Positions 444 to 40,215 of a DNA stretch of 64,000 nt are shown here, one piece after another. Location of the stretch: positions 25,839 to 89,838 of the IMG/VR virus record IMGVR_UViG_3300032313_000664, one strand, 5' to 3'. The notes below the pieces were generated by a model, which saw only the letters and a program-made list of their open reading frames with translations, was not told where the DNA came from and did no database searches. Position 1 is the stretch's first letter. Every line of letters begins with the position of its first letter. The stretch is from a virus. The translations under genes were made by a program, and so were the position numbers.

Positions 444-943
444 TGTACGCACAAGTTATAGACGAAGAAATTGTAAGAATCATTGATGAGCAGTCTTTAA
501 GAGAGATGTACTCATCTACACATTTCCCAGCAACAATAACTCAGGCATCCTTAGAAGGATTTGATAACTGGTACGTTGTAGAAGATTCTTCAGAGTTTCC
601 AGAATACAACAAGGCATCTGAAAAGTTAGAGTTTACAAGAGTATTTAATGGCACATCAGTTGTAGGTCAATACGTAGTTGTTGATCTTTCAAATGCAGAA
701 AAGGCGGCAGCAAAAGAAGCAAGAACTAGCGAAGTTAGATACCACAGAGATAATACATTAAACTCAACAGACTATCTAATGACATCAGATATATTTAATT
801 CTTTTTCTGCAGCAGATCAGCAAAAGATCATTAATTACAGACAAGCACTAAGAGATTTGACAGATCAGGCAGACCCATTTAATATCACATGGCCAGTCCT
901 TGGAATAGAGTCAATTAATTTAAAGTATAAAGTAGAGATCTAA
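443..943 (+). CDS. Tail fibre assembly chaperone-like protein
   Basis: C-terminal R-x-x-R-D-x-x-L-x-x-T-D ... YRQALRDL...ITWP motif typical of phage tail-fibre assembly proteins. Confidence 0.75.
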   Translation: MYAQVIDEEIVRIIDEQSLREMYSSTHFPATITQASLEGFDNWYVVEDSSEFPEYNKASEKLEFTRVFNGTSVVGQYVVVDLSNAEKAAAKEARTSEVRYHRDNTLNSTDYLMTSDIFNSFSAADQQKIINYRQALRDLTDQADPFNITWPVLGIESINLKYKVEI

Positions 944-1858
944 ATGCCATTTCCACCAGCCAGATACTCAACAGCTTCAGGAGTAAAATCTTTCTTTTTA
1001 AGACAGGTTATTACAAAGGGCTACGTTCTTGCTGGTTATAGAAACGGTCAGCCATGGACAAGCGTTAATGAAGTAACACACTCAACTGATACAACAATTG
1101 ATTTGGGCGGTCCATTAAATAACTCTACTTCTTATCCAGGCGGGATGTGCGATGACACATTTGCATATGTTCTTAAGGCAAATAATACAGTTGGTGGAAA
1201 CAGCAGCCAAACAAACAAATATAATATGAGAACAAATGTATCAGTAATTGGCCCATCTGCCCCATACAATGTGGGAAATGCTGGAACAATTATGCATAAA
1301 GAGCAAACAACTGCATGGGGTAAGCCTGCTGATGGAAATGCAGCACTTATGAGATTTAATTTTGCAACACAATCGTGGCTAAGTTCAATTGGCGCAGCCT
1401 ATGGAAATAACGGCGAAACAATGTCAGCTTTTTATCATGAAACAAAAGGATATCACTACGGCGATAACAATGGGCTTAAGCTTACTTTTGCAACAGAAAC
1501 TCAAGCATCTTCACCAATGAATGGTGCTCATGGACAACAAAAAGCAATTTCTTCAAAGTTATCACACCTGTATGCAGGAAATGAAGGTAGCTACAATGGA
1601 GGCTACAACCTTAGAAGATTTAGTGTTGCTACAGAAACAAATGTAGGAAACGTAGCAAAGCCAATTGGAAACTGTGGAGAAGAAGATTTTGATATGGGGC
1701 AAAACTGGCAGTATATGCTAGGTAATTATAATGGTGAGCAAAACAATAGATCTTGGAGATTTAACTATGCTACAGACTCTGGCTATGAAGGCGGAGGAAC
1801 AATGCAATCTAAGGGAGTTCCAGGCAGAAGTTCTGCCTACTCAGCACAACGTTCTTAA
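944..1858 (+). CDS. Kelch-like beta-propeller protein
   Basis: About 6 repeats of roughly 45 aa with G-Y-x-x-x-G starts and F-A-T-[ED]-[TS]-like motifs (RFNFATQS, KLTFATET, RFSVATET, RFNYATDS). Confidence 0.6.
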   Translation: MPFPPARYSTASGVKSFFLRQVITKGYVLAGYRNGQPWTSVNEVTHSTDTTIDLGGPLNNSTSYPGGMCDDTFAYVLKANNTVGGNSSQTNKYNMRTNVSVIGPSAPYNVGNAGTIMHKEQTTAWGKPADGNAALMRFNFATQSWLSSIGAAYGNNGETMSAFYHETKGYHYGDNNGLKLTFATETQASSPMNGAHGQQKAISSKLSHLYAGNEGSYNGGYNLRRFSVATETNVGNVAKPIGNCGEEDFDMGQNWQYMLGNYNGEQNNRSWRFNYATDSGYEGGGTMQSKGVPGRSSAYSAQRS

Positions 1859-1873
1859 CAGATAGGCAATAAA

Positions 1874-2602
1874 ATGAGATATATAAACGACCTAACATCG
1901 GATGTTTCTGGCTACACAAAATCACAAAAAGACATCCTTCTTTATGCTACCAATAGACATTGGGGTGTTCCAACATTTAAAATAGATAATTTTGTTGGTG
2001 GGGCTCAATTTACACCATTTGGAAAGTTAAGACAACTCTTGCTAGAACTTGGCGCAAGAGAAAACATGATTGTTGAGCAAGAGCTGAAGATTGAGAGAAC
2101 CAAACTAGAGATTGAGCTAGAGAAAGAAAGAATAACTTTAACTAACTCTCCAACTGAAATAAAGATTCATGAGCTTAATATTAAAGAAAAAGAAAGAACT
2201 CTTTTAAATCAAAAAAATGGAGTTAGCTCAGTCTATGAAGAGCGAGATAAGTACATGGTGCTTATAGACAAGTTTAATAATTCAGAAGAAGGCAAGTTGC
2301 CAGATGGAAGATTTATTATGGATATAATCGGCAACTACGAAGAAGAAGAAAGACTAGAAGCAGAGCTTTGGGGAATTAGACTAGGTGCTCAAGCAGCCTA
2401 CGATTTAATGTTTTATGGCAGAGTCAATGGCGGAAATATGGAAGCTATTGATCAGCTACCAAAAGAAGTTAGAGAAATAGCTCTTGAAACTGCAGTAGCC
2501 AAAGCAATAGAGACAAACAAGCACCTAGACGCTCTTCAAATTGAAACAAGAAAAAGACTAGAGCTGTCTGACTCAGAGCAAGGACTTTGGGAAGAAGTTT
2601 AA
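1874..2602 (+). CDS. Coiled-coil hypothetical protein
   Basis: 242-aa ORF with an E/K/L-rich heptad segment; TAATG-coupled to the next gene. Confidence 0.75.
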   Translation: MRYINDLTSDVSGYTKSQKDILLYATNRHWGVPTFKIDNFVGGAQFTPFGKLRQLLLELGARENMIVEQELKIERTKLEIELEKERITLTNSPTEIKIHELNIKEKERTLLNQKNGVSSVYEERDKYMVLIDKFNNSEEGKLPDGRFIMDIIGNYEEEERLEAELWGIRLGAQAAYDLMFYGRVNGGNMEAIDQLPKEVREIALETAVAKAIETNKHLDALQIETRKRLELSDSEQGLWEEV

Positions 2603-3159
2603 TGATATATTTTTTGTTTGACCCCGTAGATAAAACGGAGAAAAATAATTACATCCAGCATATTGGTGAATGGAACAATTTGTTCATAGGGGCAGTAGAT
2701 GAAAGCCAGATGCTGTATATGAACCTTCCAAGAATGACGGTGGTAACAAAAGAAGTTGCTCTTGCGTATAAGTTTGTTGGAAAGTATAAAGGCTATATAA
2801 AGCTTAGACCAAATACTTTGCATCTATCACAATTAGAGGGCAAGCCATTTGAGCAGGTAGAGGGTAAGTTTAAGTATACCTTGACTGAAGAAGATAAACA
2901 AAATGCATGCCTTTTCCAAAAAGCTGCAATGATATTTATGCTAGAAAAATACTATTCAAATAAACTTTTGTTATTAAAATCTACACCAGAGTTTTTAAAA
3001 CAGGACGACTTTCAATGTGAAAAGTTTCATTTAAATAAAAAGAATGAAATCTATCAAAAAATTATCTCTTGCCAAGATTGGGTAGAAGCTGGTATACTAT
3101 TAAATAATCATTTTGGCGTTCATTATGATGCGGATACTTTATCAAAAATAGATTTGTAG
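2602..3159 (+). CDS. Hypothetical protein
   Basis: Start placed at ATG 2602 (TAATG overlap) instead of the track's TTG 2587; 185 aa; no motif recognised. Confidence 0.7.
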   Translation: MIYFLFDPVDKTEKNNYIQHIGEWNNLFIGAVDESQMLYMNLPRMTVVTKEVALAYKFVGKYKGYIKLRPNTLHLSQLEGKPFEQVEGKFKYTLTEEDKQNACLFQKAAMIFMLEKYYSNKLLLLKSTPEFLKQDDFQCEKFHLNKKNEIYQKIISCQDWVEAGILLNNHFGVHYDADTLSKIDL

Positions 3160-3164
3160 GATAA

Positions 3165-4811
3165 ATGTTTAGCGTACCATTAAACCCAAAGCTAAATGAG
3201 AATCAGATAAATGAATTTATTTCTTTCTTAAAAGACTATAAAGACTACATATATGATTTTTATTTTACCTGTAGGGTTGCCCCATTTAATCAAGACGCCA
3301 TGGGCGATATTTTTCAGGGTGGAAAAGAAGACCATGACTATTTAATTGATCTTGCATTACATATTCAGCAAGAGACAGGTGTGCTTGCCTCCGCCGTATT
3401 TAACAACACAGAAGTTAGACCAGATCAACAAAACCTAGATCTATTTATTAAAAACTTTTTGCCAGTGTATGAAATGGGAATTAGGTCTGCTACGATACCC
3501 CATACTCATTGGATGGCAACGGGCCAAATTAAAAAAGCATTCCCAGAGCTATTTGTAAAGAATACTATCCTTAGAAATGTTTCAGAACCAAGGGATATAG
3601 AAAAGCTAGCCAAAGCTGGATTTGACTATGTCAACCTTGATCGTGACCTAATGCGTGATCATGCAAAGCTAAAGCTTTTTAAAAAGGCAAAGACGCAGTT
3701 TGGTGTAAAATTATCACTGCTTGCTAATGAGGGTTGCTACGGCGGATGCATAATGATGGATGAACATTATCAGTTTAATAATACCCGCACAGATGGACCT
3801 CAGTATTTTAATGACCCAATAAGCAGGGTTTCCTGCCCAAAGTGGGATCATGAAGATTTTGCGGTATCTTTAAAAACAGCTAATTTCCCACCATGGCGTG
3901 AGGATTGGCAGGAGTTCCTAGATGATCTTGGTATTGATGTTATTAAGATGCACGGTAGAGAGTCGCATACAAGACTTAAAGAGACTATGGATATAATCAG
4001 GAGGTATGCCAATAATGAAGAAATTCTATTTGACAGCTTTAATGATTTTATTGAGGAAACTAATATGGTTGACAAACCAATTACCATCTGGCGCAATAAG
4101 ATCAAAAATTGTAAATTTGATTGCTGGGATTGTGGTTATTGTGACAAGATAATGGCTGCCAAATATGGCAACCATATAAATCCAAAGGTTTCCTTTGTGG
4201 CACAGGAATTAGTTAATTCTGTCAATGATCCAATTGAGATTAATATTCCAGGACTAACATCTACTAGAGTCCAGTCATTAATAAATGGTTTAGCAAAGAA
4301 CTCTTCTAAGTACCTTGAGATTGGTTCTTATCAGGGCGCTACAGCCTCTGCCGCCTTGATGGGCAATAGACTAGATGCATACTTTGTGGACATGTGGCAG
4401 GAGGCCCCACAAGCCGTTAGAGAAGGTTGGGATATTCCAACTACAAATACCCTTGAGGAATTTAAAAACAATATAGCTCCTTATAAAGGTAATAATAAAA
4501 TATTTATATCTAACTCAGATATGTTCAAGGTTAATTTGTCAAAAATGTCAGATATTGATTTATTCTTTTATGACGGTCCTCATGATTTTGAATCAACAAA
4601 GAATGCCGTAAAATACTACTCTCCAGTATTTGCAGATCAAGCAATTTTAATATTTGATGACGCAAACTGGACGGAAGTTGTAAAAGGTGCTCATAAAGGA
4701 ATAATTGAATCTGGATTAAAAATATTGTATAGTAAGAAGATATTAAATTCATTAGAGTCTGATGCAGACTGGTGGAACGGCTTATACATAGTTGTTGTAA
4801 GCAAAGAATAG
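3165..4811 (+). CDS. U32 'peptidase'-family (Fe-S hydroxylase-like) domain fused to a class I SAM methyltransferase (Methyltransf_24-like)
   Basis: N-terminal: VNLDRDL, LANEGCYGGC, SRVSCPKW, VIKMHGRE, CKFDCWDCGYC. C-terminal: YLEIGSYQG, VDMW, DLFFYDGPH, LIFDD. Confidence 0.75.
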   Translation: MFSVPLNPKLNENQINEFISFLKDYKDYIYDFYFTCRVAPFNQDAMGDIFQGGKEDHDYLIDLALHIQQETGVLASAVFNNTEVRPDQQNLDLFIKNFLPVYEMGIRSATIPHTHWMATGQIKKAFPELFVKNTILRNVSEPRDIEKLAKAGFDYVNLDRDLMRDHAKLKLFKKAKTQFGVKLSLLANEGCYGGCIMMDEHYQFNNTRTDGPQYFNDPISRVSCPKWDHEDFAVSLKTANFPPWREDWQEFLDDLGIDVIKMHGRESHTRLKETMDIIRRYANNEEILFDSFNDFIEETNMVDKPITIWRNKIKNCKFDCWDCGYCDKIMAAKYGNHINPKVSFVAQELVNSVNDPIEINIPGLTSTRVQSLINGLAKNSSKYLEIGSYQGATASAALMGNRLDAYFVDMWQEAPQAVREGWDIPTTNTLEEFKNNIAPYKGNNKIFISNSDMFKVNLSKMSDIDLFFYDGPHDFESTKNAVKYYSPVFADQAILIFDDANWTEVVKGAHKGIIESGLKILYSKKILNSLESDADWWNGLYIVVVSKE

Positions 4812-4812
4812 A

Positions 4813-4985
4813 TTTTGTATCATATACGGATTCGAGCATATAAAAGACCGTATTTTGCTACAAAGGCACACGTGCCTATTATATTTGTACGTCTTAATGA
4901 CACGAATTAAGACCTCAAAGATGCTAGCGCTTGTGTTTATATAGGTATCTAAATTAGATTCTATAAATACTGAAAGGTTATAAAG
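4813..4985 (+). ncRNA. Candidate structured cis-regulatory RNA leader
   Basis: Four consecutive hairpins fill an unusually long intergenic gap directly upstream of a transporter gene; no Rfam family recognised. Confidence 0.35.
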
Positions 4986-5936
4986 ATGGAAATTACACCC
5001 TCTTTGTTTTTAAATAATCAGCAGTTCTTAATACTGCTAGCGTCAGTAATGGCATTGGCCTTTGCTGCAAAGAAAACCCAGGTGTTCCTGCCCTTTTACA
5101 GCTGGATTGCCAAAAATGTTAAATCTAAAAGAGCAGTAGTTGCTCTTATTTCTCTGTTCTCTGGCGTACTGCCGATTTCAGGTCGTGTCGCTGTTTCGGC
5201 TGGTGCACTAGATACAATTGCCCCAGAAGATCAAAAGAAGCGTAAAAATTACGGAATCATTGATTACCTTTCTACGCATCATTTCTACTTTTGGTCACCA
5301 CTAGAAGCAACAGTTCTTCTCCCAATGGCGGCACTAAGTATTAGTTACTGGGAGTTGATGAGCAGAGTTTGGCCACTTATTGCTACAGCATTAATAGTAA
5401 TCCTTTTCTATATATTTAAGATTTTAAAGGAAGATGATATTGAAATTAATATCCCAGACAAGCCTTTAAAGAAAAGAGATAAGCAGCCATGGCAACTTGA
5501 GGCAGATGCAAAGCGTGATCGAAAGCAACTGCTTGATTATGCAAGAGTAATTCTATTTACTGGAATTGTTATTATCCTGAGCAATATTGTAAAGGCTAAT
5601 TTTGATACAATAAATGCATGGGTAGAAAATGCCCATAAAAATAATCTATTAATCTTAGTTGCTTTTGCTGGATTCTTGGCAAGTTTTGCCTTGGGAAGTT
5701 CTAGCAAGTTTGCTGGATTTGTCGTCCTCTCAGTAGGAGTATTTGGCATAGAAACTTTGCCACTATTCTTTGCAGTCGACTACGCAGGATATATGCTGTC
5801 TCCAGCACATAAGTGTTTAGTTGTAGGTAAGAGCTACTTTAGAACCCCTCTCAAGGATTACTATAAGGCAATTTTTGCTTTGGTGATTCCAGTGGTTCTA
5901 ATGGGTATAACTTTGTACTACGGCGGGACCCTCTAA
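4986..5936 (+). CDS. DUF401-like multi-pass membrane protein (IT-superfamily-type transporter)
   Basis: Many hydrophobic helices; SGVLPISGRVAVSA, DYLSTHHFYFWSPL and YAGYMLSPAHKCL resemble the DUF401 motifs GLLP..GG...SA, NYWFRH..E...PL and GxxLSPxHxC. Confidence 0.6.
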   Translation: MEITPSLFLNNQQFLILLASVMALAFAAKKTQVFLPFYSWIAKNVKSKRAVVALISLFSGVLPISGRVAVSAGALDTIAPEDQKKRKNYGIIDYLSTHHFYFWSPLEATVLLPMAALSISYWELMSRVWPLIATALIVILFYIFKILKEDDIEINIPDKPLKKRDKQPWQLEADAKRDRKQLLDYARVILFTGIVIILSNIVKANFDTINAWVENAHKNNLLILVAFAGFLASFALGSSSKFAGFVVLSVGVFGIETLPLFFAVDYAGYMLSPAHKCLVVGKSYFRTPLKDYYKAIFALVIPVVLMGITLYYGGTL

Positions 5937-5947
5937 AAACCTATTGT

Positions 5948-6014
5948 CCCCACTGGCTTCTAGAAGGCCAGTGGGGTATAATAAGTTAGGCAAAGGTAGA
6001 TAATACTACCTTTG
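5948..6014 (+). terminator. Two strong hairpins after the transporter gene
   Basis: CCCCACTGGCTTC..GAAGGCCAGTGGGG (5948-5976) and CAAAGGTAG-ATAATA-CTACCTTTG (5991-6014); no long U tract. Confidence 0.5.
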
Positions 6015-6028
6015 ATAATAAATATTTA

Positions 6029-6037
6029 TGATATACT
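6029..6037 (+). promoter_or_regulatory. Extended -10 promoter
   Basis: TGATATACT upstream of AGGAG and ATG 6059. Confidence 0.5.
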
Positions 6038-6058
6038 TTTAGGTATAGGAGATACAAC

Positions 6059-6391
6059 ATGCCAGATTATGCAAGTTTAACAGCCCAAGTAGAATTATTC
6101 AAGACCAAGGTGGGAGCCCTCAGCGGATCAACACTTGGAGCACAAGAATTGGTTTATCTAGCCAAAGCTATTGAATCAATGGGAAATCTTTTGGGAGTCA
6201 ACGACGTTTTGGCAGCTACAAATACAAAGCTAAATGATATCTCAACTGCAGTAACAGGTGCCGTAACAACTGTTTCAAGCGCAGGAAGCACACAAGTAGC
6301 AGCAGTAGCTGCAGCAGGAGCAACACAGGTAGCAGCTGTTGCGAATGAATTAAATAACTTTACAATCTATCAGAATATGGGAGTAATATAA
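6059..6391 (+). CDS. Ala-rich putative virion protein
   Basis: AGGAG RBS; repeated AGxTQVAAV; located in the fibre region. Confidence 0.65.
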   Translation: MPDYASLTAQVELFKTKVGALSGSTLGAQELVYLAKAIESMGNLLGVNDVLAATNTKLNDISTAVTGAVTTVSSAGSTQVAAVAAAGATQVAAVANELNNFTIYQNMGVI

Positions 6392-6729: not shown

Positions 6730-7725
6730 ATGTCACAAGTTTCCAACACTACAAGTTCCATTTATTTGCCAGGACTAACTACAACAATTAATGCTGCCGT
6801 AACACAGGGATTGCAAACTGGTATTACAGCACAAGCTATTGCAGCAGGTGGAGTAAGCTCAATGTACATGCCTCTTGAAGAAAGAATTTATTCATCAGGC
6901 ACATGGACAAGACCAGCAAATTCAGGACCAGTTATTAAAATGATTCTTGTTGGCGGAGGAGGTTCAGGCGGAGTTGGAGTTTCATGGTCCCACAGCGGAG
7001 CAGGTGGTGGTGGCGCAGGACAACTTGTTGAAAGATGGCTAGACATTTCTTCAGTACCAATTGGATCAACTATTTCAGTAACTATCGGAGCAGGTGGCGC
7101 AGCAGTAGGTGGAAATGCAAACGGAAATAATGGAGGAAACTCTTCATTCGGTGTTAACGGACAACCATTTTATTTAATTGCATACGGCGGTGGCGGTGGC
7201 GGTTACCCAGATGGTACAGGTAACAATGGCAACAGCGGAAGCATGGGTCCAGGATACAATAATCAAAATGGTGGAGGATCTGGTGGCGGTGGCGGATCTA
7301 ACTACAACTGGCAATACGGCGCAGGCGGAGGCGGAGGCGGATCATCTAGCGCAGGAATGCCAGCAAGAAATACAACATCAAGCAATGGAACTGGAAGCGC
7401 AGGGCGACCAGGAGGATTTGGTTGGGGTCCTGGAGCATCAGGCGGAGCAACTGGAACTAACCACAGCTGGACATCATGGATTGGAATGGGCGGAGGCGGC
7501 GGTAATGGTCAATACGGAATTGCAGGCGGCGGAGGCGGAGGCGGAGGAGTAGGCGGAGGAGGATCTTGTGGTGGTGGCGCAGGAGGATCCCCAGTAACAG
7601 ATAACAATGGTGGATCAGGAATGGACGGAACAGGTTCAGGTGGTGGTGGAAATTCACACACAGGTGGTGTCGGTCAAAAAGGAGGTTCTGGCGTAGCTAT
7701 TATTACATACTACGTTAAGGCATAA
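6730..7725 (+). CDS. Glycine-rich virion protein (paralog 1)
   Basis: SSGTWTRP..LVGGGGSGG..GGSGVAII..Y glycine-rich phage domain architecture; AGGAG RBS. Confidence 0.75.
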   Translation: MSQVSNTTSSIYLPGLTTTINAAVTQGLQTGITAQAIAAGGVSSMYMPLEERIYSSGTWTRPANSGPVIKMILVGGGGSGGVGVSWSHSGAGGGGAGQLVERWLDISSVPIGSTISVTIGAGGAAVGGNANGNNGGNSSFGVNGQPFYLIAYGGGGGGYPDGTGNNGNSGSMGPGYNNQNGGGSGGGGGSNYNWQYGAGGGGGGSSSAGMPARNTTSSNGTGSAGRPGGFGWGPGASGGATGTNHSWTSWIGMGGGGGNGQYGIAGGGGGGGGVGGGGSCGGGAGGSPVTDNNGGSGMDGTGSGGGGNSHTGGVGQKGGSGVAIITYYVKA

Positions 7726-8009: not shown

Positions 8010-8254
8010 TGTCAAGAATATGGGCACTATTAGTAGATAATGTTATTGGAAATGTAATCATTGCAGAAGAAGATTTTATTGAATCTCATCCAGATTTTTC
8101 AGGATTGGGTCGGATTGACATTACAGACTATGATCCACAACCAGGAATTATGTGGATACTAGAGGATAATAAATTTAAAGCACCAGAATCAGTAAGACCA
8201 AAACCAGAACACGTAGTACCAGAAAATAATCTTGAAATCGAGGTAAAGGCATAA
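8009..8254 (+). CDS. Small acidic protein (paralog of 7728..8009)
   Basis: TAATG-coupled at both ends; DITDYDPQPGIMW. Confidence 0.65.
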   Translation: MSRIWALLVDNVIGNVIIAEEDFIESHPDFSGLGRIDITDYDPQPGIMWILEDNKFKAPESVRPKPEHVVPENNLEIEVKA

Positions 8255-9189
8255 TGGCAACATATGGAACAATTAATCAAATATACGTACCAGGACTAGA
8301 TACTCAAATTTTAGCATCAACAACAGCTCTTTCAACATCTATTGCTATTCCATTAATTGCAGCAAACCTTTCAGGTTTTTATAATGCGTATGAAGTTAGT
8401 ATTTTAAGCGGTGGGTCATGGACACGTCCAGCAAACAGCGCACCACAAATTAACGTAACGCTTGTTGGCGGAGGCGGAGGCGGTGGATGCACCAACTATA
8501 GCGCAAACCACGGCGGTGGTGGAGCAGGACAACTATTAAGAAGAACTCTTGATATTTCATCAGTTCCAATAGGATCAGGAATTTCAATCGGTATTGCTAA
8601 TGGCGGAACATGTAATGCACAAGGAGGAAACTCAACATTTGGAACTTCAGGACAGCCATTCTATATGATTGCATACGGTGGAGGTTCAACACAGGGTAAT
8701 GGACAATCAGGTTCAAATGGACCAGGGGCTAACAATAGAACTGGAATCGGATCTGGCGGTGGCGGACAAGGAGAATGGATTAACTCATGGGGCGCTGGCG
8801 GTGGCGGTGGTGGAGCAGGCGGAGCAGGCATGCAAGGCAACGTTCACTTTACAAGCTCTGGAGGATACTCTGGATACTTTGGAGGATCAAGAAACTCATC
8901 AGAAGGTTCATCAGGCGGAGGACCAGGTTCTTCCAATGGAAATGACTCTGGTAACAGAAGCCAAGGAGGACAGGGCGGTAATGGTCTATACGGACTAGCA
9001 GGTGGCGGAGGAGGCGCAGCAAGAGGCGTTGGTGGCGGAGGATCTTGTGGCGGAGGTCAAGGACACGGAGACCACATTGGAACTCCAAGAGCAGACGCTA
9101 TGCCAAACTCAGGATCTGGCGGTGGCGGTGGTGGAGCAAACACTGGTGGTTCAGGAATCTGCAAGATTATCTATTGGGTAAAAGCTTAA
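8254..9189 (+). CDS. Glycine-rich virion protein (paralog 2)
   Basis: Shares IYxPGL, WTRPANS, LDISSVPIGS, GQPFYxIAYGGG, GGGSCGGG and a [YW]VKA C-terminus with 6730..7725. Confidence 0.75.
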   Translation: MATYGTINQIYVPGLDTQILASTTALSTSIAIPLIAANLSGFYNAYEVSILSGGSWTRPANSAPQINVTLVGGGGGGGCTNYSANHGGGGAGQLLRRTLDISSVPIGSGISIGIANGGTCNAQGGNSTFGTSGQPFYMIAYGGGSTQGNGQSGSNGPGANNRTGIGSGGGGQGEWINSWGAGGGGGGAGGAGMQGNVHFTSSGGYSGYFGGSRNSSEGSSGGGPGSSNGNDSGNRSQGGQGGNGLYGLAGGGGGAARGVGGGGSCGGGQGHGDHIGTPRADAMPNSGSGGGGGGANTGGSGICKIIYWVKA

Positions 9190-10848: not shown

Positions 10849-13248
10849 ATGTCATATGCTCCAATTAGATTTGCAGGACCTTCATTAATTCCAGCATCTC
10901 CAGCCAAAATATACACGGCTGTATCTACAATAATTATTAAAGAATTTACTGTAACAAACTTCAGTGGTTCAACATTGCCATTTAGCATATTTTTGCTTGG
11001 AGAAAATGGCGATCAGGTTATTAACCTATACGGAGTAAATAGATCAAGCCTAGACCCATATACACTTTATGGAAATGTTAACGTAGCAAATAACACAACT
11101 CTTAAGCTAGAGCACTCATTAATTTTAAATGCTGGAGAATCAATTGCAGCAGTTACAACAACACCAAATTGCTACTCATTAACAATATCTGGAGTAGATC
11201 TTTCAGGAACACTCTCTGGCGGAGGATCAACAGGCGGAACCACAGGAGCTTCAGGGGCAGGGTATTCTGATGTAACATCAATAACAACAAACCCAGTAAC
11301 TACAGGCTCAAAAGTATTTTATGTAAACAATAGCGGTGCCTATACAGCGGGACAACGTGTTCGTGTAATTAATCCACTTGCACTAACAACATACGTTGAA
11401 GGAACTATTACGCAAGTTGTAAAGAATGTCAGCATTACAGTAGCTGTTGATGCAACAAATGGAACAGGAACATACTCTGAATGGGTATTTGCCGTTACTG
11501 GAAATCCAGGAACGTCTGGAACTTCAGGATCAAATGGTGCAACAGGTGCTACGGGTGCTACGGGAGTAGGTGCCACAGGCGCAACAGGAGCAACTGGCCC
11601 AACTGGAGCCAATGGAACATCTTTGACTTCGCAGGGAACAGTTCCAAATGTTGCTTCGCTACCAACAACAAATGTATTTGTAGGTGCAACATATTTAGTG
11701 ACAGATACTCAAGAAATGTATGTTTGGAATGGAACAGCGTTTTCAAATGCTGGTGTTTATAGGGGGCCTATCGGAGCAACTGGACCAGTAGGTGCCACAG
11801 GCGCAACAGGAGCAACTGGTCCAACTGGCGCAGCTGGAAGATCTATTAATATTAAAGGAACAAAAGCAAATATTGCTGCACTACCATCTTCAGGAAATAC
11901 GTCTGGAGATTCATGGATTGTATTAACTGATTTACATCTTTATGTTTGGGACGGAGCAACTTGGCTAGATGCTGGGCAGTTCCAAGGCCCAACAGGTGCA
12001 ACTGGACCAGCAACTATTTCAGTAGGTACAGTTTCTACAACTGGCCCAGCTGGGACACCTTCAGTAACAAATTCAGGAACATCATCGGTTGCAGTATTTG
12101 ATTTTATTTTACAGCAAGGCCCAACTGGAATTACTGGTCCAACTGGAACTTCTGGCTCTGTTCAAATAGGAACAGTTGGATCCACTGGACCAACTGGAAA
12201 TGCGTCTGTAACAAATTCAGGAACAGTAAATGCTGCAACGTTAGATTTTGTTTTAAAGCAGGGCCCAACAGGGCCTACAGGCCCAGCGGGACCTACAACA
12301 ATAACTATAGGTACAGTATCTGCAACTGGCCCAACAGGAGTTCCTACAATAACAAATGTTGGAACAACAACTGATTTAATTTTAAATTTTGCATTACAAC
12401 AAGGACCAGCAGGACTAACAGGTGCTACTGGCCCAACGGGTGCAGCAAGCACTGTAGTTGGACCAACAGGACCAACAGGTTCAACTGGCCCAACAGGAGC
12501 TAACGGACAAGCTGGAGCCGATGGAAGCTCAGTTAGAATTTTAGGATCATATCCAACCGAAGCAGCGCTAAACGCTGCTAAACCATCAGGAAACATTTTA
12601 GGAGATGGTTATCTAGTTGCTGGAAATCTATTTGTATGGACTGGAACAGTTTGGACAGATGCTGGAAACATTCAGGGTCCAACAGGACCAACAGGTGTAG
12701 CGGGCCCAACAGGTGCAACAGGTGCAACGGGTGCAGTAGGTCCAACAGGAGCTAACGGATCTAGCATTCAAGGCCCAACAGGTGCAACAGGTGCAACAGG
12801 TTCTACAGGCGCAACAGGCGCAACAGGTGCTACAGGAGTAGGATCCCCAGGTGCAGCAGGACCAACAGGACCAACAGGAGCAGACGGACCTGCAGGAGGA
12901 CCAACAGGACCAACGGGACCAGCAGGTATAAGTATCACTGCTAATTATATTGTCACAAGTCCAGCAGGCGGCAGTTATAGTATAGACGGAGCTTCAGGAA
13001 ATCCAACATTGACTTTATTAAGAGGACATACATATGTCTTTACGGTAAACGCCCAAGGACACCCATTCTGGTTTCAAACAACTAGCGGTGCATACAACTC
13101 AGCAAATACTTTTGCTACTGGTGTAACAAACGGGGGAGACGATGTAGGAGGAATTACATTTACTGTTCCACTTAGTGCGCCAAACAATTTGTATTACATT
13201 TGCCAATTCCATGCAAGTATGAACGGAATCATTAACATAATCGGTTAA
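10849..13248 (+). CDS. Collagen-like fibre protein with C-terminal cupredoxin-like domain
   Basis: Long G-A-T/G-P-T triplet blocks with YVWNG/YVWDG/FVWTG interruptions; C-terminal GHPFWF...YYICQFHASM. Confidence 0.8.
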   Translation: MSYAPIRFAGPSLIPASPAKIYTAVSTIIIKEFTVTNFSGSTLPFSIFLLGENGDQVINLYGVNRSSLDPYTLYGNVNVANNTTLKLEHSLILNAGESIAAVTTTPNCYSLTISGVDLSGTLSGGGSTGGTTGASGAGYSDVTSITTNPVTTGSKVFYVNNSGAYTAGQRVRVINPLALTTYVEGTITQVVKNVSITVAVDATNGTGTYSEWVFAVTGNPGTSGTSGSNGATGATGATGVGATGATGATGPTGANGTSLTSQGTVPNVASLPTTNVFVGATYLVTDTQEMYVWNGTAFSNAGVYRGPIGATGPVGATGATGATGPTGAAGRSINIKGTKANIAALPSSGNTSGDSWIVLTDLHLYVWDGATWLDAGQFQGPTGATGPATISVGTVSTTGPAGTPSVTNSGTSSVAVFDFILQQGPTGITGPTGTSGSVQIGTVGSTGPTGNASVTNSGTVNAATLDFVLKQGPTGPTGPAGPTTITIGTVSATGPTGVPTITNVGTTTDLILNFALQQGPAGLTGATGPTGAASTVVGPTGPTGSTGPTGANGQAGADGSSVRILGSYPTEAALNAAKPSGNILGDGYLVAGNLFVWTGTVWTDAGNIQGPTGPTGVAGPTGATGATGAVGPTGANGSSIQGPTGATGATGSTGATGATGATGVGSPGAAGPTGPTGADGPAGGPTGPTGPAGISITANYIVTSPAGGSYSIDGASGNPTLTLLRGHTYVFTVNAQGHPFWFQTTSGAYNSANTFATGVTNGGDDVGGITFTVPLSAPNNLYYICQFHASMNGIINIIG

Positions 13249-13274: not shown

Positions 13275-14336
13275 ATGAAAATAGCAGTATATACAATTGC
13301 TTTGAATGAAGAGCAATTTGTTAAGCGTTGGTACGAGTCTGCACAAGATGCAGATTATTTGTTGATTGCAGATACAGGGTCAACTGATAAAACAAAAGAA
13401 ATAGCATTAAATCTAGGCATAGAAGTTTATTCTATATCCGTGGCCCCCTGGCGATTTGATGATGCTAGAAATGCAGCTCTTGCACTAATACCGTCTGATA
13501 TAGATTACTGCATATCTTTAGACATGGATGAGGTGTTGTCAGAAGGATGGAGAGAAGAATTAGAAAAACTTCCTTCTTCGGTAACAAGGCCAATACATAG
13601 ACTAGTTACTTCATTTGATGAAGATGGGAAACCAGGTGTAGAATTTGATGCACTAAGAATTCATTCAAGACATGGTCATAGATGGAAATACCCAATACAT
13701 GAATCTGTTGCATTTTACGGAATAGATGAAGTAAGACAAAATGTTGATATTAAGATATACCACTACCCAGATAATAATAAATCAAGAGGGCAATATCTTC
13801 CGTTGTTAGCAATGGCGGCACAAGAAGATCCTACAAGCGACAGGTGTGCACATTATTATGCAAGAGAGCTTTTCTATTATGCCAGATATGAAGAAGCAGC
13901 AATTGAGTTTAAAAGGCATCTAGAATTACCTTCGGCTTTCTGGAAGCCAGAGAGATGTGAGTCTATGAGGTATATTGCAAGGTGTGAGCCAAACAACAAA
14001 GAGTACTGGCTCAGGCTGGCTATTGCAGAATGCCCAGAAAGAAGAGAGCCTTTTGTAGATCTTGCTCAATATTTTTATGAGCTTCAAGAATGGGATAGAG
14101 TAAAAGAATATTCAGAGCTTGCCTTAAATATAAAAGAAAAATTTCTAGGATATTTCTGCGAAGCAGATGCCTGGGGATGGAAGCCACACGACCTATTAGC
14201 GCTGGCTAACTTTAATTTAGGACTAGACGAAGAGGCACTACTTCATGGTAAAATTGCATTAGATCTTAATAATGATGACAGGCTAAAAAAGAATGTAGAG
14301 TTCTATCAGCTAGCTCTGTCAAATACTGGAGAATAA
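13275..14336 (+). CDS. GT2 glycosyltransferase with TPR repeats
   Basis: IALNEE, DTGSTD, FDDARN, LDMDE (DxD), IHE, then helical TPR-like repeats. Confidence 0.85.
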   Translation: MKIAVYTIALNEEQFVKRWYESAQDADYLLIADTGSTDKTKEIALNLGIEVYSISVAPWRFDDARNAALALIPSDIDYCISLDMDEVLSEGWREELEKLPSSVTRPIHRLVTSFDEDGKPGVEFDALRIHSRHGHRWKYPIHESVAFYGIDEVRQNVDIKIYHYPDNNKSRGQYLPLLAMAAQEDPTSDRCAHYYARELFYYARYEEAAIEFKRHLELPSAFWKPERCESMRYIARCEPNNKEYWLRLAIAECPERREPFVDLAQYFYELQEWDRVKEYSELALNIKEKFLGYFCEADAWGWKPHDLLALANFNLGLDEEALLHGKIALDLNNDDRLKKNVEFYQLALSNTGE

Positions 14337-37389: not shown

Positions 37390-40215
37390 ATGTCAGATGC
37401 ATTAAAAGACCTAGCCATTGTTCCAGTAACTAGTAGTGATACTAATTACTTTCTTCGTAAAGTAACTGGATTAAAAATTGACAAGACTTATTCATTTAAG
37501 TTTCAGTGGGTTTTTGAAGATGATACTAAAAGCGATTGGTCTCCAGGGTATCAAATAAATACACCAACAGAAAACGTGCCTGGGGCACCTTCAGTAACGG
37601 TACCTGCAACAGCAATAGGAAACATACCAGTAACACTTTCTGTTTTCCCACCAAATACAAAGCGTGTAGATATATATATTATAGGCGGAGTGTACGGTAC
37701 GGGCAAAGTAGCAGATAGTTTTCTGAGCGCTGGAACAAAAAATATTTCAGTAGCAGCAGGAGTTTATCAGGTAAGCTTAATAGCAGTAACCCCTTCTGGA
37801 ATTAATGGAGATCCAACTAATACATTTACAATTACCATATCTAATGTTGTAACGGAGGACACGGTTGCACCAGATCCAATTTCTGCAGGAGTTGTAACTG
37901 GAGGAGTTCATCCACAAGATTCTAGCGGTCAATTAGGATATTTAAACGTTGCTGTAACTAATGCAACGATACCCGCAGACTTTGCTGGATATATCGTAAA
38001 GATAGTCAGCAGCACAAATACTTGGACTCAAACATTTAATAGCTCAACAGCGTTATCTAATTTATATATAACTGGTGGGCTATTTGTTGGTCAATCATAT
38101 ACATTATCTGTAGCCACAACTGACGGTAAAAATATATCTAGCTATGTTAACTGCACACCAGCACCATTTACAATTACTGATACTAGAACTAATACAAGCA
38201 CAGTAACTGGAAATCTTTCTTTTTCTGCCACAGATTCTATATTGACAGTATCTTGGGTGGCATCTACGGATCCGTATGTAGACTCATATAGAGTTCAAAT
38301 AACATCTGATACTGACACAGCATTTACCTCACCAATTCAAACAGTAGAAAGCAAAGGGACCACTGCAACATTTGGCGGACTGGTATCAAATACAACCTAT
38401 AGAGTAAGGGTTACATCAAGATACAGCGGAGCTTCAGCAGCATTAAGTACGGTTCATACTACGGGCACATTTACGTTAAATGCTTCAGGAGCAATTAGCG
38501 ATGGTATCGCCCCAACAACAAATCCTGCACTAACATCTGCTATGGTTAAATCTTTATTTGGAGCATTTGCAATCACATTTCCTTCGGTAGCAAACTCTGA
38601 TGCAGTTACATATGAAGTATTTATTAAAGCAGATAGCCCAACTGGTATTGTAAGTAATACCTATAAAGTATTAGAAGTGGGCGGAACATTTGCTGTAGTT
38701 AAATCTTTAGCAGATAAAACTACTGCTCTTACCTACGGAGCAGATTATTATATTGCTATACGTGCTAAAGATAATGACGGAGTTTCAACTGGAACAGTAA
38801 CAGCGGTAGGGCCAGTCAAAACACTTCAAGTCTCCAATGCAGATCTTGCAGCAGACTCTGTTTATGCAAACAATATTTTAGCTGGAGTAATTGATGCTAC
38901 TAAATTAACCGCAGATACCATACTAGCTAATCAAAAAATAACTGTTGGCTCTAATGCTGCACTCGATAGAATCAGATTAGACGCAACTGATGCAACAATT
39001 AGCGGACAAGCTGTAAGCTCAAGAATTTATATTGGAGGCGGAAATTATTATGATACCGCAAGCTCTTTTTATGCAGACAACTTAGGCCGCCTAAGCATTG
39101 GGCAAAAGTTAAAATTTGAAAGTGGCGAATTAACAATAAATGGAAAAGGAACTTTTACAGGAACTGTTACTGCTGGCTCTGGATTAAACTCAGTATCTCT
39201 TGGCAACGATGTAAGTGGCACAAATGATGGCATCTACATTGGCGCAACTGGAGACTACATATATTCAGATGGAACACTAAGGTTGGGTAATGGAAACATT
39301 ACATATTCAAACGGAACTCTGGCGGTTCAGGGAAACATTACAGCAAATTCTATAGCAGCAAATACAAGTCTTTCTGGACTAAGTATTACTGGAACTACTG
39401 GAACATTTGGCGGAGTTACAATAAATTCATCTGGTATTAGCTCAACTAATTTTAGCGTAACATCCACTGGAATTTTATCCGCAGCAGCAGGAACAATCGG
39501 TGGGTGGGATATAAATGGTACCCAGCTAAGAAGTACAGGCACAAACTCTATTACATTAAATCCAAATACACCTAAAATTGCATTGCTTCAGTCAGGCGTT
39601 GAAAAAATTACAATAGATCCAGTTGAGGGCATTAAAGACGGAGCTGGTAATTTTTCATTAACCCCAGCGGGAATACTTACTATAAAGGGATCTATTACTT
39701 CAGGATCAACAATTAATGGTGCAACAATCACTGTTAGTAATACATTTAGCTCAAGCGGTTTGACAACAGCATCTGATACAGGCTTAACGGAATCTACAGA
39801 CTCATCTTCTGGAGGAACACAATCAACTTCGGGCTCCACTTCCTTTACTCCAACTCTTACCATAGCTAATGGAAAGATGTCTTCAGATAGCATATTAAGA
39901 ATTGAAGGCTCAAGCTATACCGAGATACTATCTGGAGGAACTCAATCTGCGATATTTGATTCAAGCAAGTCCTCATTAGTATTTACTACTGGATTATATT
40001 TAGGAAACCCAGCCACATCTTCAACGGCTGAAATACAAAATCACTCTACTCCTTATATTACTGTAGACGCAAGAATGCGATTAAGAAGAGGTTCACCGCT
40101 TACCTATCCAAACGGAAGCACGGGAGCCTACATAAGAAACATTTATATTAAAAGTACAACTAGCACCCCATCATCTACAACAGGTCATGTCGGCGACATT
40201 ATGATTACGTATTAG
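37390..40215 (+). CDS. Large tail fibre/host-recognition protein with FN3-like repeats
   Basis: FN3-like segments (LTVSW..YRVQ..GLVSNTTYRVRV); beta-strand-rich spike region (GTIGGWDI). Confidence 0.7.
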   Translation: MSDALKDLAIVPVTSSDTNYFLRKVTGLKIDKTYSFKFQWVFEDDTKSDWSPGYQINTPTENVPGAPSVTVPATAIGNIPVTLSVFPPNTKRVDIYIIGGVYGTGKVADSFLSAGTKNISVAAGVYQVSLIAVTPSGINGDPTNTFTITISNVVTEDTVAPDPISAGVVTGGVHPQDSSGQLGYLNVAVTNATIPADFAGYIVKIVSSTNTWTQTFNSSTALSNLYITGGLFVGQSYTLSVATTDGKNISSYVNCTPAPFTITDTRTNTSTVTGNLSFSATDSILTVSWVASTDPYVDSYRVQITSDTDTAFTSPIQTVESKGTTATFGGLVSNTTYRVRVTSRYSGASAALSTVHTTGTFTLNASGAISDGIAPTTNPALTSAMVKSLFGAFAITFPSVANSDAVTYEVFIKADSPTGIVSNTYKVLEVGGTFAVVKSLADKTTALTYGADYYIAIRAKDNDGVSTGTVTAVGPVKTLQVSNADLAADSVYANNILAGVIDATKLTADTILANQKITVGSNAALDRIRLDATDATISGQAVSSRIYIGGGNYYDTASSFYADNLGRLSIGQKLKFESGELTINGKGTFTGTVTAGSGLNSVSLGNDVSGTNDGIYIGATGDYIYSDGTLRLGNGNITYSNGTLAVQGNITANSIAANTSLSGLSITGTTGTFGGVTINSSGISSTNFSVTSTGILSAAAGTIGGWDINGTQLRSTGTNSITLNPNTPKIALLQSGVEKITIDPVEGIKDGAGNFSLTPAGILTIKGSITSGSTINGATITVSNTFSSSGLTTASDTGLTESTDSSSGGTQSTSGSTSFTPTLTIANGKMSSDSILRIEGSSYTEILSGGTQSAIFDSSKSSLVFTTGLYLGNPATSSTAEIQNHSTPYITVDARMRLRRGSPLTYPNGSTGAYIRNIYIKSTTSTPSSTTGHVGDIMITY

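Follow-up and report, generated by a model that had tools for sequence, protein, structure and literature searches.

Conserved gene cassette in phage tail-fibre loci

Near the start of a 64,000-nucleotide (nt) window of viral DNA (positions 25,839 to 89,838 of IMG/VR record IMGVR_UViG_3300032313_000664), five consecutive genes form a cassette that includes a fusion of a U32-like barrel to a methyltransferase. By comparing this locus with those of cultured and uncultured phages, we found that the core of the cassette is a set of four co-inherited genes, comprising one to three beta-propellers, a phrog_1604-like gene, a phrog_1409 gene and the barrel enzyme. The cassette is a mobile and conserved module within the fibre loci of phages, with a permease as a frequent fifth member; we give this reading, taken together with the function proposed below, about an even chance. 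It is a real, widespread and uncharacterised enzyme cassette, and the function that we propose for it is plausible. The window is part of an 89.8-kilobase (kb) record with an estimated completeness of 83%. Open reading frames (ORFs) and other features of the cassette are given below, with protein lengths in amino acids (aa), and genes are referred to by their first position.

944-1858, + strand: predicted propeller gene, 304 aa, from the ORF listing
1874-2602, + strand: phrog_1409 gene, 242 aa, from the ORF listing
2602-3159, + strand: phrog_1604-like gene, 185 aa when read from the ATG, or 190 aa when read from a TTG at 2587
3165-4811, + strand: barrel-methyltransferase fusion gene, 548 aa, from the ORF listing
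3165-4178, + strand: U32-like barrel part of the fusion, residues 1-338
4213-4811, + strand: Methyltransf_24 part of the fusion, a class I S-adenosylmethionine (SAM) methyltransferase domain
4812-4985, + strand: spacer of 174 nt, lineage-specific
4986-5936, + strand: predicted DUF401-like permease gene, 316 aa, from the ORF listing
5948-5976 and 5991-6014, + strand: two hairpins, likely terminators, from folding

The ORF listing bears out the statement of a first-pass annotation, made from the letters alone, that the five genes are co-oriented. Gene 944 abuts the upstream ORF at 943/944. Gene 1874 follows it after 15 nt, gene 2602 overlaps gene 1874 by 1 nt at its ATG (2602), gene 3165 lies 5 nt beyond gene 2602, and 174 nt separate genes 3165 and 4986.

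Distribution and synteny of the cassette

Using tblastn, we matched the fusion enzyme in 126 of 50,697 GenBank phage records, which comprise 77 Synechococcus, 38 Cyanophage, 8 Prochlorococcus and 3 Ralstonia entries, or 123 cyanomyoviruses and three Ralstonia jumbo-phage records (RP12, RP31). These genomes include well-studied Prochlorococcus and Synechococcus phages, and in the records examined the gene is annotated as hypothetical. A megablast comparison of window positions 900-6100 with GenBank phages gave no match. A pattern scan of IMG/VR yielded 542 confirmed enzyme matches, placing the fusion gene in hundreds of uncultured aquatic phage contigs as well. From these we assembled a set of 86 loci, made up of the best 80 of the 542 IMG/VR matches (59-97% identity) and six GenBank loci. 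Across the 86 loci the genes were always arranged on one strand in the order propeller(s), 1409/1604-like genes, enzyme and permease. The propeller was found by phmmer in 79 loci, in one to three tandem copies, and the phrog_1409 gene, a near-constant companion of the enzyme, in 82. A homologue of gene 2602 was detected in 50 loci by phmmer and in 80 by a profile hidden Markov model (HMM).

The same genes occur together in distantly related phages. In P-HM2, S-CAM4 and S-RIM12, phrog_1417, phrog_1604, phrog_1409 and phrog_1458 genes stand in a row behind a tail-fibre gene, a four-gene run that depositors have numbered T4-GC 351-354. These genes (P-HM2 gp098-101, P-SSM4 gp032-035) are direct homologues of the four core genes of the window and likewise lie beside tail-fibre genes, annotated only as hypothetical or 'sericin 1 precursor-like'; Syn19 and S-RIM2 are further cultured cyanophages with the cassette. 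The T4-GC genes differ from the window in three respects: the second and third genes are in the opposite order, a swap that distinguishes the window lineage from the cyanophages; the T4-GC propellers are extended at the N-terminus by about 100-160 aa relative to the window propeller; and no adjacent permease was seen in P-HM2, S-CAM4 or S-RIM12. In the phiKZ-like phage RP12 the order is a 292-aa protein, ORF141, a phrog_1409 gene, a stand-alone barrel and a DUF401-like gene. The RP12 barrel is 346 aa long (38% identity, E 7e-69), and the DUF401-like gene overlaps its gene by 8 nt. Synteny across three phage groups thus rules out a chance neighbourhood of five genes, and the synteny check proposed in the first-pass annotation came out in its favour: the genes are co-inherited in cyanophages, in RP12/RP31 and in the IMG/VR loci, rather than scattered with no shared neighbourhood.

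Among the closest relatives, identity to the window ranged from 80 to 91% for the enzyme, 47 to 80% for the propeller, 54 to 92% for the phrog_1409 protein, 35 to 95% for the 1604-like protein and 42 to 98% for the permease, in combinations that varied from locus to locus. Propeller and phrog_1409 identities co-varied between loci; as these are adjacent genes, this may reflect shared recombination blocks rather than co-evolution.

The N-terminal half of the fusion enzyme is modelled as a U32-type barrel

The first 350 residues of the gene 3165 product matched no Pfam family at E ≤ 10, including the U32 family PF01136. A six-frame search of the whole record with PF01136 (curated cut-off 22.4 bits) was also without a match, while the same search fired in 10 of 14 control genomes. 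Using HMMER to scan 1.84 billion representatives, we recovered 286 relatives of the enzyme at E ≤ 1e-3, many of which stand alone, with lengths of 330-380 aa. Seven cysteines (C191, C195, C224, C316, C320, C323 and C326) were invariant across an alignment of 51 sequences, forming a C-X3-C-X28-C group in the barrel and a C-X3-C-X2-C-X2-C group in a C-terminal helical cap. Near-invariant polar residues of the barrel included D159, R160, R164, E189, E200, H201, K261 and R265.

An AlphaFold2 (AF2) model of this half, with a predicted local distance difference test (pLDDT) score of 91.8 and a predicted template modelling (pTM) score of 0.90, consisted of an eight-stranded beta/alpha barrel followed by the helical cap that holds the last four cysteines. 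The top structural match was Mk0906 of Methanopyrus kandleri (5d88), a minimal U32 protein, with a Z score of 17.1 and a root-mean-square deviation (rmsd) of 3.1 over 223 of 247 residues (Foldseek TMt 0.69). Mk0906 ranked first in Foldseek, in a full VIA-align comparison with 48,161 chains and in a re-examination of the Foldseek top 1000, and the next-best barrels, methylenetetrahydrofolate reductases and others, reached Z scores of 13.0-13.6, which is 3.5-4 Z units lower. The two proteins share 9% identity, and the phage barrel has about 70 additional C-terminal residues bearing the four-Cys motif. In the nearest ESM Atlas clusters of the barrel (0.97), 20% of members carried PF01136. Sequence and profile searches of the PDB with the fusion, a profile of the N-terminal domain, the methyltransferase domain and a profile of the whole fusion found nothing significant. 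The designation U32 for the N-terminal domain of gene 3165 therefore holds, as far as the model can tell, as a statement of fold and distant kinship, and the protein falls outside the family as defined by sequence. Of the U32-methyltransferase fusion originally named, the Mk0906-type barrel and the Methyltransf_24 domain were recovered; membership of U32 by sequence was not, given the lack of PF01136 and the different cysteine spacing.

We also considered a radical SAM enzyme and rejected it: the CX3CX2C motif (C316-C323) sits in the C-terminal cap, after a full barrel, and there was no Radical_SAM match at E ≤ 10. Among the barrel relatives, one of 553 aa (P0125) has a DUF7483 domain (E 1.3e-51) in the place of the methyltransferase, and PHROG families labelled 'tail fiber' and 'virion structural' match the same domain at their C-termini. 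Neither the window nor the fetched loci contained a match to the fibre-type C-terminal domain of P0125. Three further relatives, P0131 (579 aa), P0218 and P0259, carry N-terminal extensions of 200-235 aa. The 230-aa cysteine-rich extension of P0131 was compared with genes 1874 and 2602 as a possible Rosetta-stone link and proved unrelated.

The C-terminal half carries a conserved methyltransferase domain

Residues 384-499 of the fusion matched Methyltransf_24 (PF13578) with 44 bits (cut-off 26.3; E 4.6e-11), the sole Pfam family in the protein, and this family matched 17 of 19 fusion homologues. Methyltransf_3 (PF01596) matched one of the 19, with an E-value of 0.051. Positions of the SAM fold that are near-invariant are Y383, G387, G391, D409, Y469, D470, G471, D498, D499 and N501; cation-dependent O-methyltransferases carry an Asp/Asp/Asn metal triad. 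Some homologues are named 'predicted O-methyltransferase YrrM' by JGI. Searches of the PDB by sequence or profile found no solved structure for the domain.

Gene 944 is predicted to encode a Kelch-type propeller

The gene 944 product belongs to the phrog_1417 family (E 6.8e-47) and is 27% identical to P-HM2 gp098, the 'sericin 1 precursor-like' protein (E 4e-19). It matched no Pfam family at E ≤ 10, the Kelch repeat profile included. An AF2 model built from a 33-sequence alignment (pLDDT 85.2, about 24 strands) superposed in VIA-align on the Kelch domain 6hrl_B with a Z score of 27.8 and an rmsd of 2.6 over 270 residues, and further Kelch domains followed closely (2vpj_A, Z 27.0; 6fmp_A, Z 26.8), all over 266-270 residues. 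From this model the gene 944 product is predicted to be a six-bladed Kelch-type beta-propeller, with a kinship at the level of the fold only, in agreement with the propeller first read from the translation. Residues G294, S296 and S297 (G-x-S-S) are kept in all 33 aligned propellers, about 10-23 residues before the C-terminus, and the motif is placed just before the last ring-closing strand. Longer homologues have an N-terminal fibre-like segment that is missing from the window protein.

In RP12, a 292-aa protein in BFVD matched the gene 944 model with a TMq of 0.71 and an rmsd of 3.8; we equate this protein with RP12 ORF142 by its length alone. BLASTP comparisons of ORF142 with gene 944, and of ORF141 with gene 2602, were not significant, and an HMM of the 33 propellers found no match in RP12 at E ≤ 1, which makes the link between the RP12 and window propellers one of fold only. 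In several jumbo phages (PhiPA3, Noxifer, Phabio and CBB), proteins with a virion structural annotation are Kelch propellers. These share the six-bladed Kelch fold predicted for the gene 944 product, and their similarity to it is at the fold level only (TMq 0.49-0.59).

Genes 1874 and 2602 encode conserved partner families

The gene 1874 product is a phrog_1409 protein (E 7.7e-28) and is 29% identical to RP12 ORF140 (E 1e-16); it had no usable match in the ESM Atlas. Conserved motifs of phrog_1409 fall in its N-terminal third and around residues 166-188, with invariant columns at F40, Q54, E58, W166, R169, Q173, G182, G187 and N188. Co-folding of the barrel (residues 1-338) with the phrog_1409 protein gave a score of 0.00 in two runs without controls, which is no evidence either way.

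The gene 2602 product alone matched nothing in Pfam, PHROG or NCBIfam and had been set down at first as unknown. An HMM built from its relatives, however, matched the phrog_1604 genes of P-HM2 (5.4e-16), S-RIM12 (1.1e-14) and S-H25 (3.1e-13), together with those of S-CAM4 and MbCM1 (about 1e-6 each). The protein is not an orphan; judging by these profile matches, it belongs, as a distant member, to the phrog_1604 family of cyanophages.

The permease is an accessory member and the spacer a lineage-specific insert

The gene 4986 product scored 39.7 bits against PF04165 (DUF401; cut-off 24; E 5.2e-10), with the best stretch covering profile positions 54-186 of 393. Its match to TIGR00529 (E 1e-12, 48.1 bits) is far under that family's cut-off of 378.4. 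The protein is a phrog_14035 member (E 4.3e-76) with six hydrophobic segments, and is predicted to be a shortened DUF401-like membrane permease, consistent with the DUF401-like transporter named in the first-pass annotation. The permease is also tied genetically to the barrel enzyme. Every GenBank phage record with the permease also carries the barrel gene (12 of 12), and these records represent four lineages (S-H25, MbCM1, RP12/RP31 and S-CAM4/ACG-2014j), in three of which the two genes lie within about 1 kb of each other; in S-CAM4 they are 58 kb apart. Among the 86 loci the permease gene was present in 65 and absent in 14 with 3 kb or more of sequence downstream, and seven more were too short to tell, such that the permease, at first taken as a fixed part of the cassette, is better described as accessory. 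In nine loci (L057, L060, L061, L065, L072, L074, L079, L080 and L084) 1.2-1.9 kb separate the enzyme and permease genes, and in two (L062 and L069) about 5 kb, with further genes inserted.

The spacer at 4812-4985 had been read as a structured RNA placing the transporter under RNA control. It gave no Rfam match at E ≤ 1, and its folding energy of -38.5 kcal/mol (z -2.71) was a modest excess over shuffles. Within it are a terminator-like hairpin (4864-4877) and hexamers resembling those of promoters. The spacer was found in only 2 of the 86 loci (L015 and L016), where it is 99% identical to the window; in most of the remaining close relatives no gap separates the ORFs of the enzyme and the permease, which abut or overlap. 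Within the record the spacer occurs once, which excludes a repeat element. The spacer is best read as a recent lineage-specific insert that is not part of the cassette. RNA control of the transporter, as first proposed, fails on this point: most relatives have no such spacer, their two genes abutting or overlapping.

Downstream of the permease, the strong closing hairpins at 5948-6014 that had been described were borne out. Positions 5937-6058 have a folding energy of -45.1 kcal/mol (z -6.28; none of 200 shuffles was as good); the first hairpin has a G+C-rich stem of 12 bp (5948-5976) and the second a stem of 9 bp (5991-6014). The first hairpin recurs 3' of the permease gene in 15 of the 86 loci, and the two are likely terminators that close the unit.

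Bacterial relatives pair the barrel with a sulfotransferase

A scan of one genome per prokaryote species identified seven loci with the barrel. Two of these are short marine contigs that carry the phage-type cassette and are probably phage DNA. Four Syntrophaceae/Smithella contigs (L093:161-14252 and L094-L096), which represent one lineage, encode a stand-alone barrel with 41% identity over its full length (E 1e-87), followed by a 259-aa paralogue in which the C-X3-C motif is retained (hhalign probability 68.6%, E 4.6e-5). Their neighbours include a Sulfotransfer_3 enzyme, an ATP-grasp protein, two GNATs and a TauE/SafE permease, as well as a CysD-like protein and a fusion of CysN to adenosine 5'-phosphosulfate (APS) kinase for the supply of 3'-phosphoadenosine 5'-phosphosulfate (PAPS); the cluster adjoins a 1253-aa GLUG-motif protein. 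On a Victivallales contig the barrel follows a pilin-like gene and precedes a glycyl-radical enzyme. No match to the propeller, phrog_1409 or the DUF401-like permease was found in the bacterial loci.

Sulfotransferases and methyltransferases both require an acceptor, for example a hydroxyl. The same barrel, paired with one or the other and with a permease nearby, fits a scheme in which a hydroxyl is made and then capped. The Syntrophaceae cluster may be a hydroxylation-plus-sulfation system. These sulfotransferase-linked relatives offer a second, independent system for finding the substrate.

Proposed function of the fusion enzyme

In the mechanism that we propose, the barrel would bind an iron-sulfur (Fe-S) cluster, or Fe-S and Zn, and, as U32 proteins already characterised do, would carry out an O2-independent hydroxylation of an aromatic or heteroaromatic ring. 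The fused methyltransferase would then cap the new hydroxyl to give a methoxy group, and, more tentatively, the permease may move a small anionic substrate, cofactor or by-product. The module would be transcribed with the fibre genes, with transcription ending at the hairpins at 5948-6014. We consider hydroxylate-then-methylate chemistry by the phage fusion possible, at a little under even chances, by analogy with two known systems.

The first of these is UbiU-UbiV, a heterodimer of 4Fe-4S U32 proteins that is required for O2-independent ring hydroxylations, each of which is then followed by O-methylation, according to the available text of 10.1101/587956. Prephenate is the oxygen donor for UbiU-UbiV, and the available text of PMC10990095 proposes the same chemistry for U32 proteins at large. 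Like the phage enzyme, UbiU-UbiV (with UbiG, in E. coli) combines a U32-type triosephosphate isomerase (TIM) barrel and invariant cysteines with, in its case, hydroxylation and then O-methylation of one and the same ring, and the UbiU/UbiV paralogue pair resembles the adjacent barrel pair of the Syntrophaceae loci. The cysteines are spaced differently, as CX6CX16CX38C or CXnCX12CX3C in UbiU-UbiV and as C-X3-C-X28-C plus C-X3-C-X2-C-X2-C in the phage barrel, which also lacks PF01136 and a significant profile match, is fused to its methyltransferase and is phage-encoded in fibre loci. No Pfam family was detected in the cassette partners, SCP2 not having been searched for on its own. In the second system, TrhP (YegQ; YrrN/YrrO in B. 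subtilis) and TrmR (YrrM) convert tRNA U34 to 5-hydroxyuridine (ho5U) and then 5-methoxyuridine (mo5U), coupling a U32-type protein with a SAM-dependent O-methyltransferase. The phage enzyme differs in being one polypeptide, in the family of its methyltransferase (Methyltransf_24 in 17 of 19, Methyltransf_3 in 1 of 19) and in its company of a propeller and two further partner proteins.

As to the target, we favour a virion protein or ligand because the cassette lies in fibre loci of three phage groups, the strictly co-inherited propellers show the behaviour of receptor-binding proteins and P0125 carries the fibre-type domain DUF7483 instead of the methyltransferase. That the target is the co-inherited propeller or a fibre-tip protein, or a ligand held by it, rather than tRNA, rRNA or DNA, is nevertheless a tentative assignment and, taken by itself, somewhat unlikely. 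A broader form of the idea, in which the Kelch fibre-tip proteins of many aquatic phages are hydroxylated on an aromatic side chain and methylated before assembly, tuning receptor binding, while anaerobes decorate surface adhesins by means of the barrel and a sulfotransferase, seems to us quite improbable. If fibre tips were tailored in this way, this would amount to a post-translational modification of a new class, and a protein would for the first time be a substrate of U32-type chemistry. If the enzyme acts as its fold suggests, the recently recognised prephenate-type O2-independent hydroxylation would be extended to viruses, possibly with a protein as substrate, and a handle would be gained on the diversification of host recognition by fibre loci.

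Several observations weigh against this interpretation. Similarity of fold alone does not show function, and direct hydroxylase activity is undemonstrated even for TrhP and RlhA according to the available text of PMC10990095. The window enzyme gave no PF01136 match at E ≤ 10 or in the six-frame search of the record; one of 72 relatives scanned at E ≤ 1 gave such a match, which was sub-threshold (13.9 bits, E 0.033). Comparison by hhalign of the 51-sequence profile with the single E. coli UbiU and UbiV sequences was not significant (E 0.15 and 0.19, respectively), and the U32 motif CX6CX15CX3/4C, which binds a 4Fe-4S cluster and is given in the available text of 10.1101/587956, is absent, the cysteine spacing being different. 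On the methyltransferase side, O-methyl specificity is inferred by analogy, with Methyltransf_3 in only 1 of 19 fusions and no solved relative; moreover, the RP12 and bacterial barrels have no methyltransferase, from which it follows that the barrel can do its job without methylation. Of the 86 loci, 14 with 3 kb or more of downstream sequence have no permease, and in S-CAM4 it lies 58 kb off, and the Syntrophaceae cluster is equally compatible with a small-molecule or a protein target. The role of the propeller as modified protein or virion component is putative: RefSeq calls RP12 ORF136, which adjoins the cassette, virion structural, while the cassette ORFs themselves are hypothetical. Finally, the 80 IMG/VR loci, being closely related, do not count as independent samples, which leaves the cyanophage and Ralstonia comparisons as the cross-group evidence. 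The RP31 homologues, ORF135-139, are not named in the main text of PMC5468394, so far as that text was available.

Three other explanations were weighed against modification of a virion protein or its ligand. The enzyme could belong to a small-molecule pathway, modifying a soluble or lipid aromatic such as a quinone, an aromatic acid or a cofactor, with the permease importing the substrate or exporting the product and the propeller either binding the compound or being a mere neighbouring fibre gene. The tie between permease and barrel (12 of 12 GenBank phage records, and the 8-nt overlap in RP12) suits such a pathway, and the Syntrophaceae cluster, with its ATP-grasp protein, two GNATs, sulfotransferase, PAPS supply and TauE permease, resembles a metabolite-tailoring set. 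UbiU-UbiV, moreover, act on a lipid ring, as the available text of 10.1101/587956 describes. A permease is nevertheless dispensed with in 14 of the 86 loci that extend at least 3 kb downstream, the constant partners (propeller, 1604-like and 1409 proteins) are not enzyme-like by Pfam or NCBIfam, and the cassette occupies the fibre loci of three unrelated phage groups; we consider this explanation unlikely. Alternatively, the barrel, 1409 and 1604-like proteins could be chaperones or scaffolds for the propeller, with the cysteines binding a structural metal and the methyltransferase fold serving as a degenerate binding module. The cassette directly follows a fibre assembly chaperone gene, the lower identities of the propeller (47-80%), 1409 (54-92%) and 1604-like (35-95%) proteins relative to the enzyme (80-91%) are a pattern of receptor-binding proteins and their helpers, and the C-terminal four-Cys motif in short helices is zinc-knuckle-like. 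An assembly factor is, however, difficult to reconcile with near-invariant polar residues in the barrel, as expected of an active site, with near-invariant core positions of the SAM fold (Y383, G387, G391, D409, D470, D498, D499 and N501), or with bacterial homologues that stand among enzymes where no propeller, 1409 or permease homologue was detected, and we judge it distinctly unlikely.

The remaining explanation is nucleic-acid modification, in which the fusion, in the manner of TrhP with TrmR or of RlhA, would make a 5-hydroxy and then a 5-methoxy pyrimidine in tRNA, rRNA or DNA of the host or the phage and its position in a fibre locus would be incidental. The trmR-trhP operon of B. subtilis pairs a U32 protein with an O-methyltransferase, and the JGI label 'YrrM' on some homologues points the same way. 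Two characterised U32 subfamilies act on RNA pyrimidines, as reported in the available texts of PMC10990095 and PMC6599085. Pfam scans, in contrast, revealed no recognisable RNA-binding or PF01136 features in the window enzyme, which is strictly co-inherited in fibre loci with a propeller and two non-enzymatic partners, and one relative (P0125) is fused to a fibre-type domain. The partner of the Syntrophaceae barrel is a sulfotransferase, a class of enzyme for which we know of no nucleobase role. We regard modification of a nucleic acid as very unlikely.

Literature searches covering cyanophage U32 proteins, the P-SSM4 virion and proteome, the P-SSM4 and P-HM2 locus tags and RP12 found no study of the cassette. 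New here are the assignment of gene 2602 to phrog_1604, the finding that the spacer is no part of the cassette, the mosaic identities and the sulfotransferase/PAPS context in Syntrophaceae.

Genomic surroundings of the cassette

Among 20 sequencing runs listed as containing the DNA, none is RNA; the DNA runs are labelled freshwater, lake-water, subsurface or plain metagenome. Around the cassette we identified the following genes.

51-443, + strand: small fibre-type protein, 130 aa; phrog_9017 tail fiber protein, E 4.9e-14
443-943, + strand: tail-fibre assembly chaperone; PF16778 Phage_tail_APC, E 3.5e-11, also phrog_8716 and phrog_4912
6730-7725 and 8254-9189: Gly_rich_2 proteins, downstream of the cassette
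10849-13248: collagen-like tail-fibre gene, downstream of the cassette

Fibre PHROGs, PF16778, Gly_rich_2 proteins and a collagen-like gene thus surround the cassette, in keeping with its original description as embedded among tail-fibre genes. A gene like that at 51-443 lies upstream of the cassette in 23 of the 86 loci. The two Gly_rich_2 genes are paralogues, each with a small ORF ahead of it. Downstream of the tail genes, two adjoining ORFs of about 950 aa (37390-40215 and 40224-43091) were without a PHROG match at E ≤ 1e-8. In relatives of the window, a set of 6059-like, 51-like and 443-like genes occurs on both flanks of the cassette, as if fibre modules had been duplicated. Right after the fibre gene at 10849-13248 there is a beta-1,4-glycosyltransferase-type gene at 13275-14336 (phrog_13126, E 2.3e-114), the product of which is possibly a second candidate fibre-tailoring enzyme.

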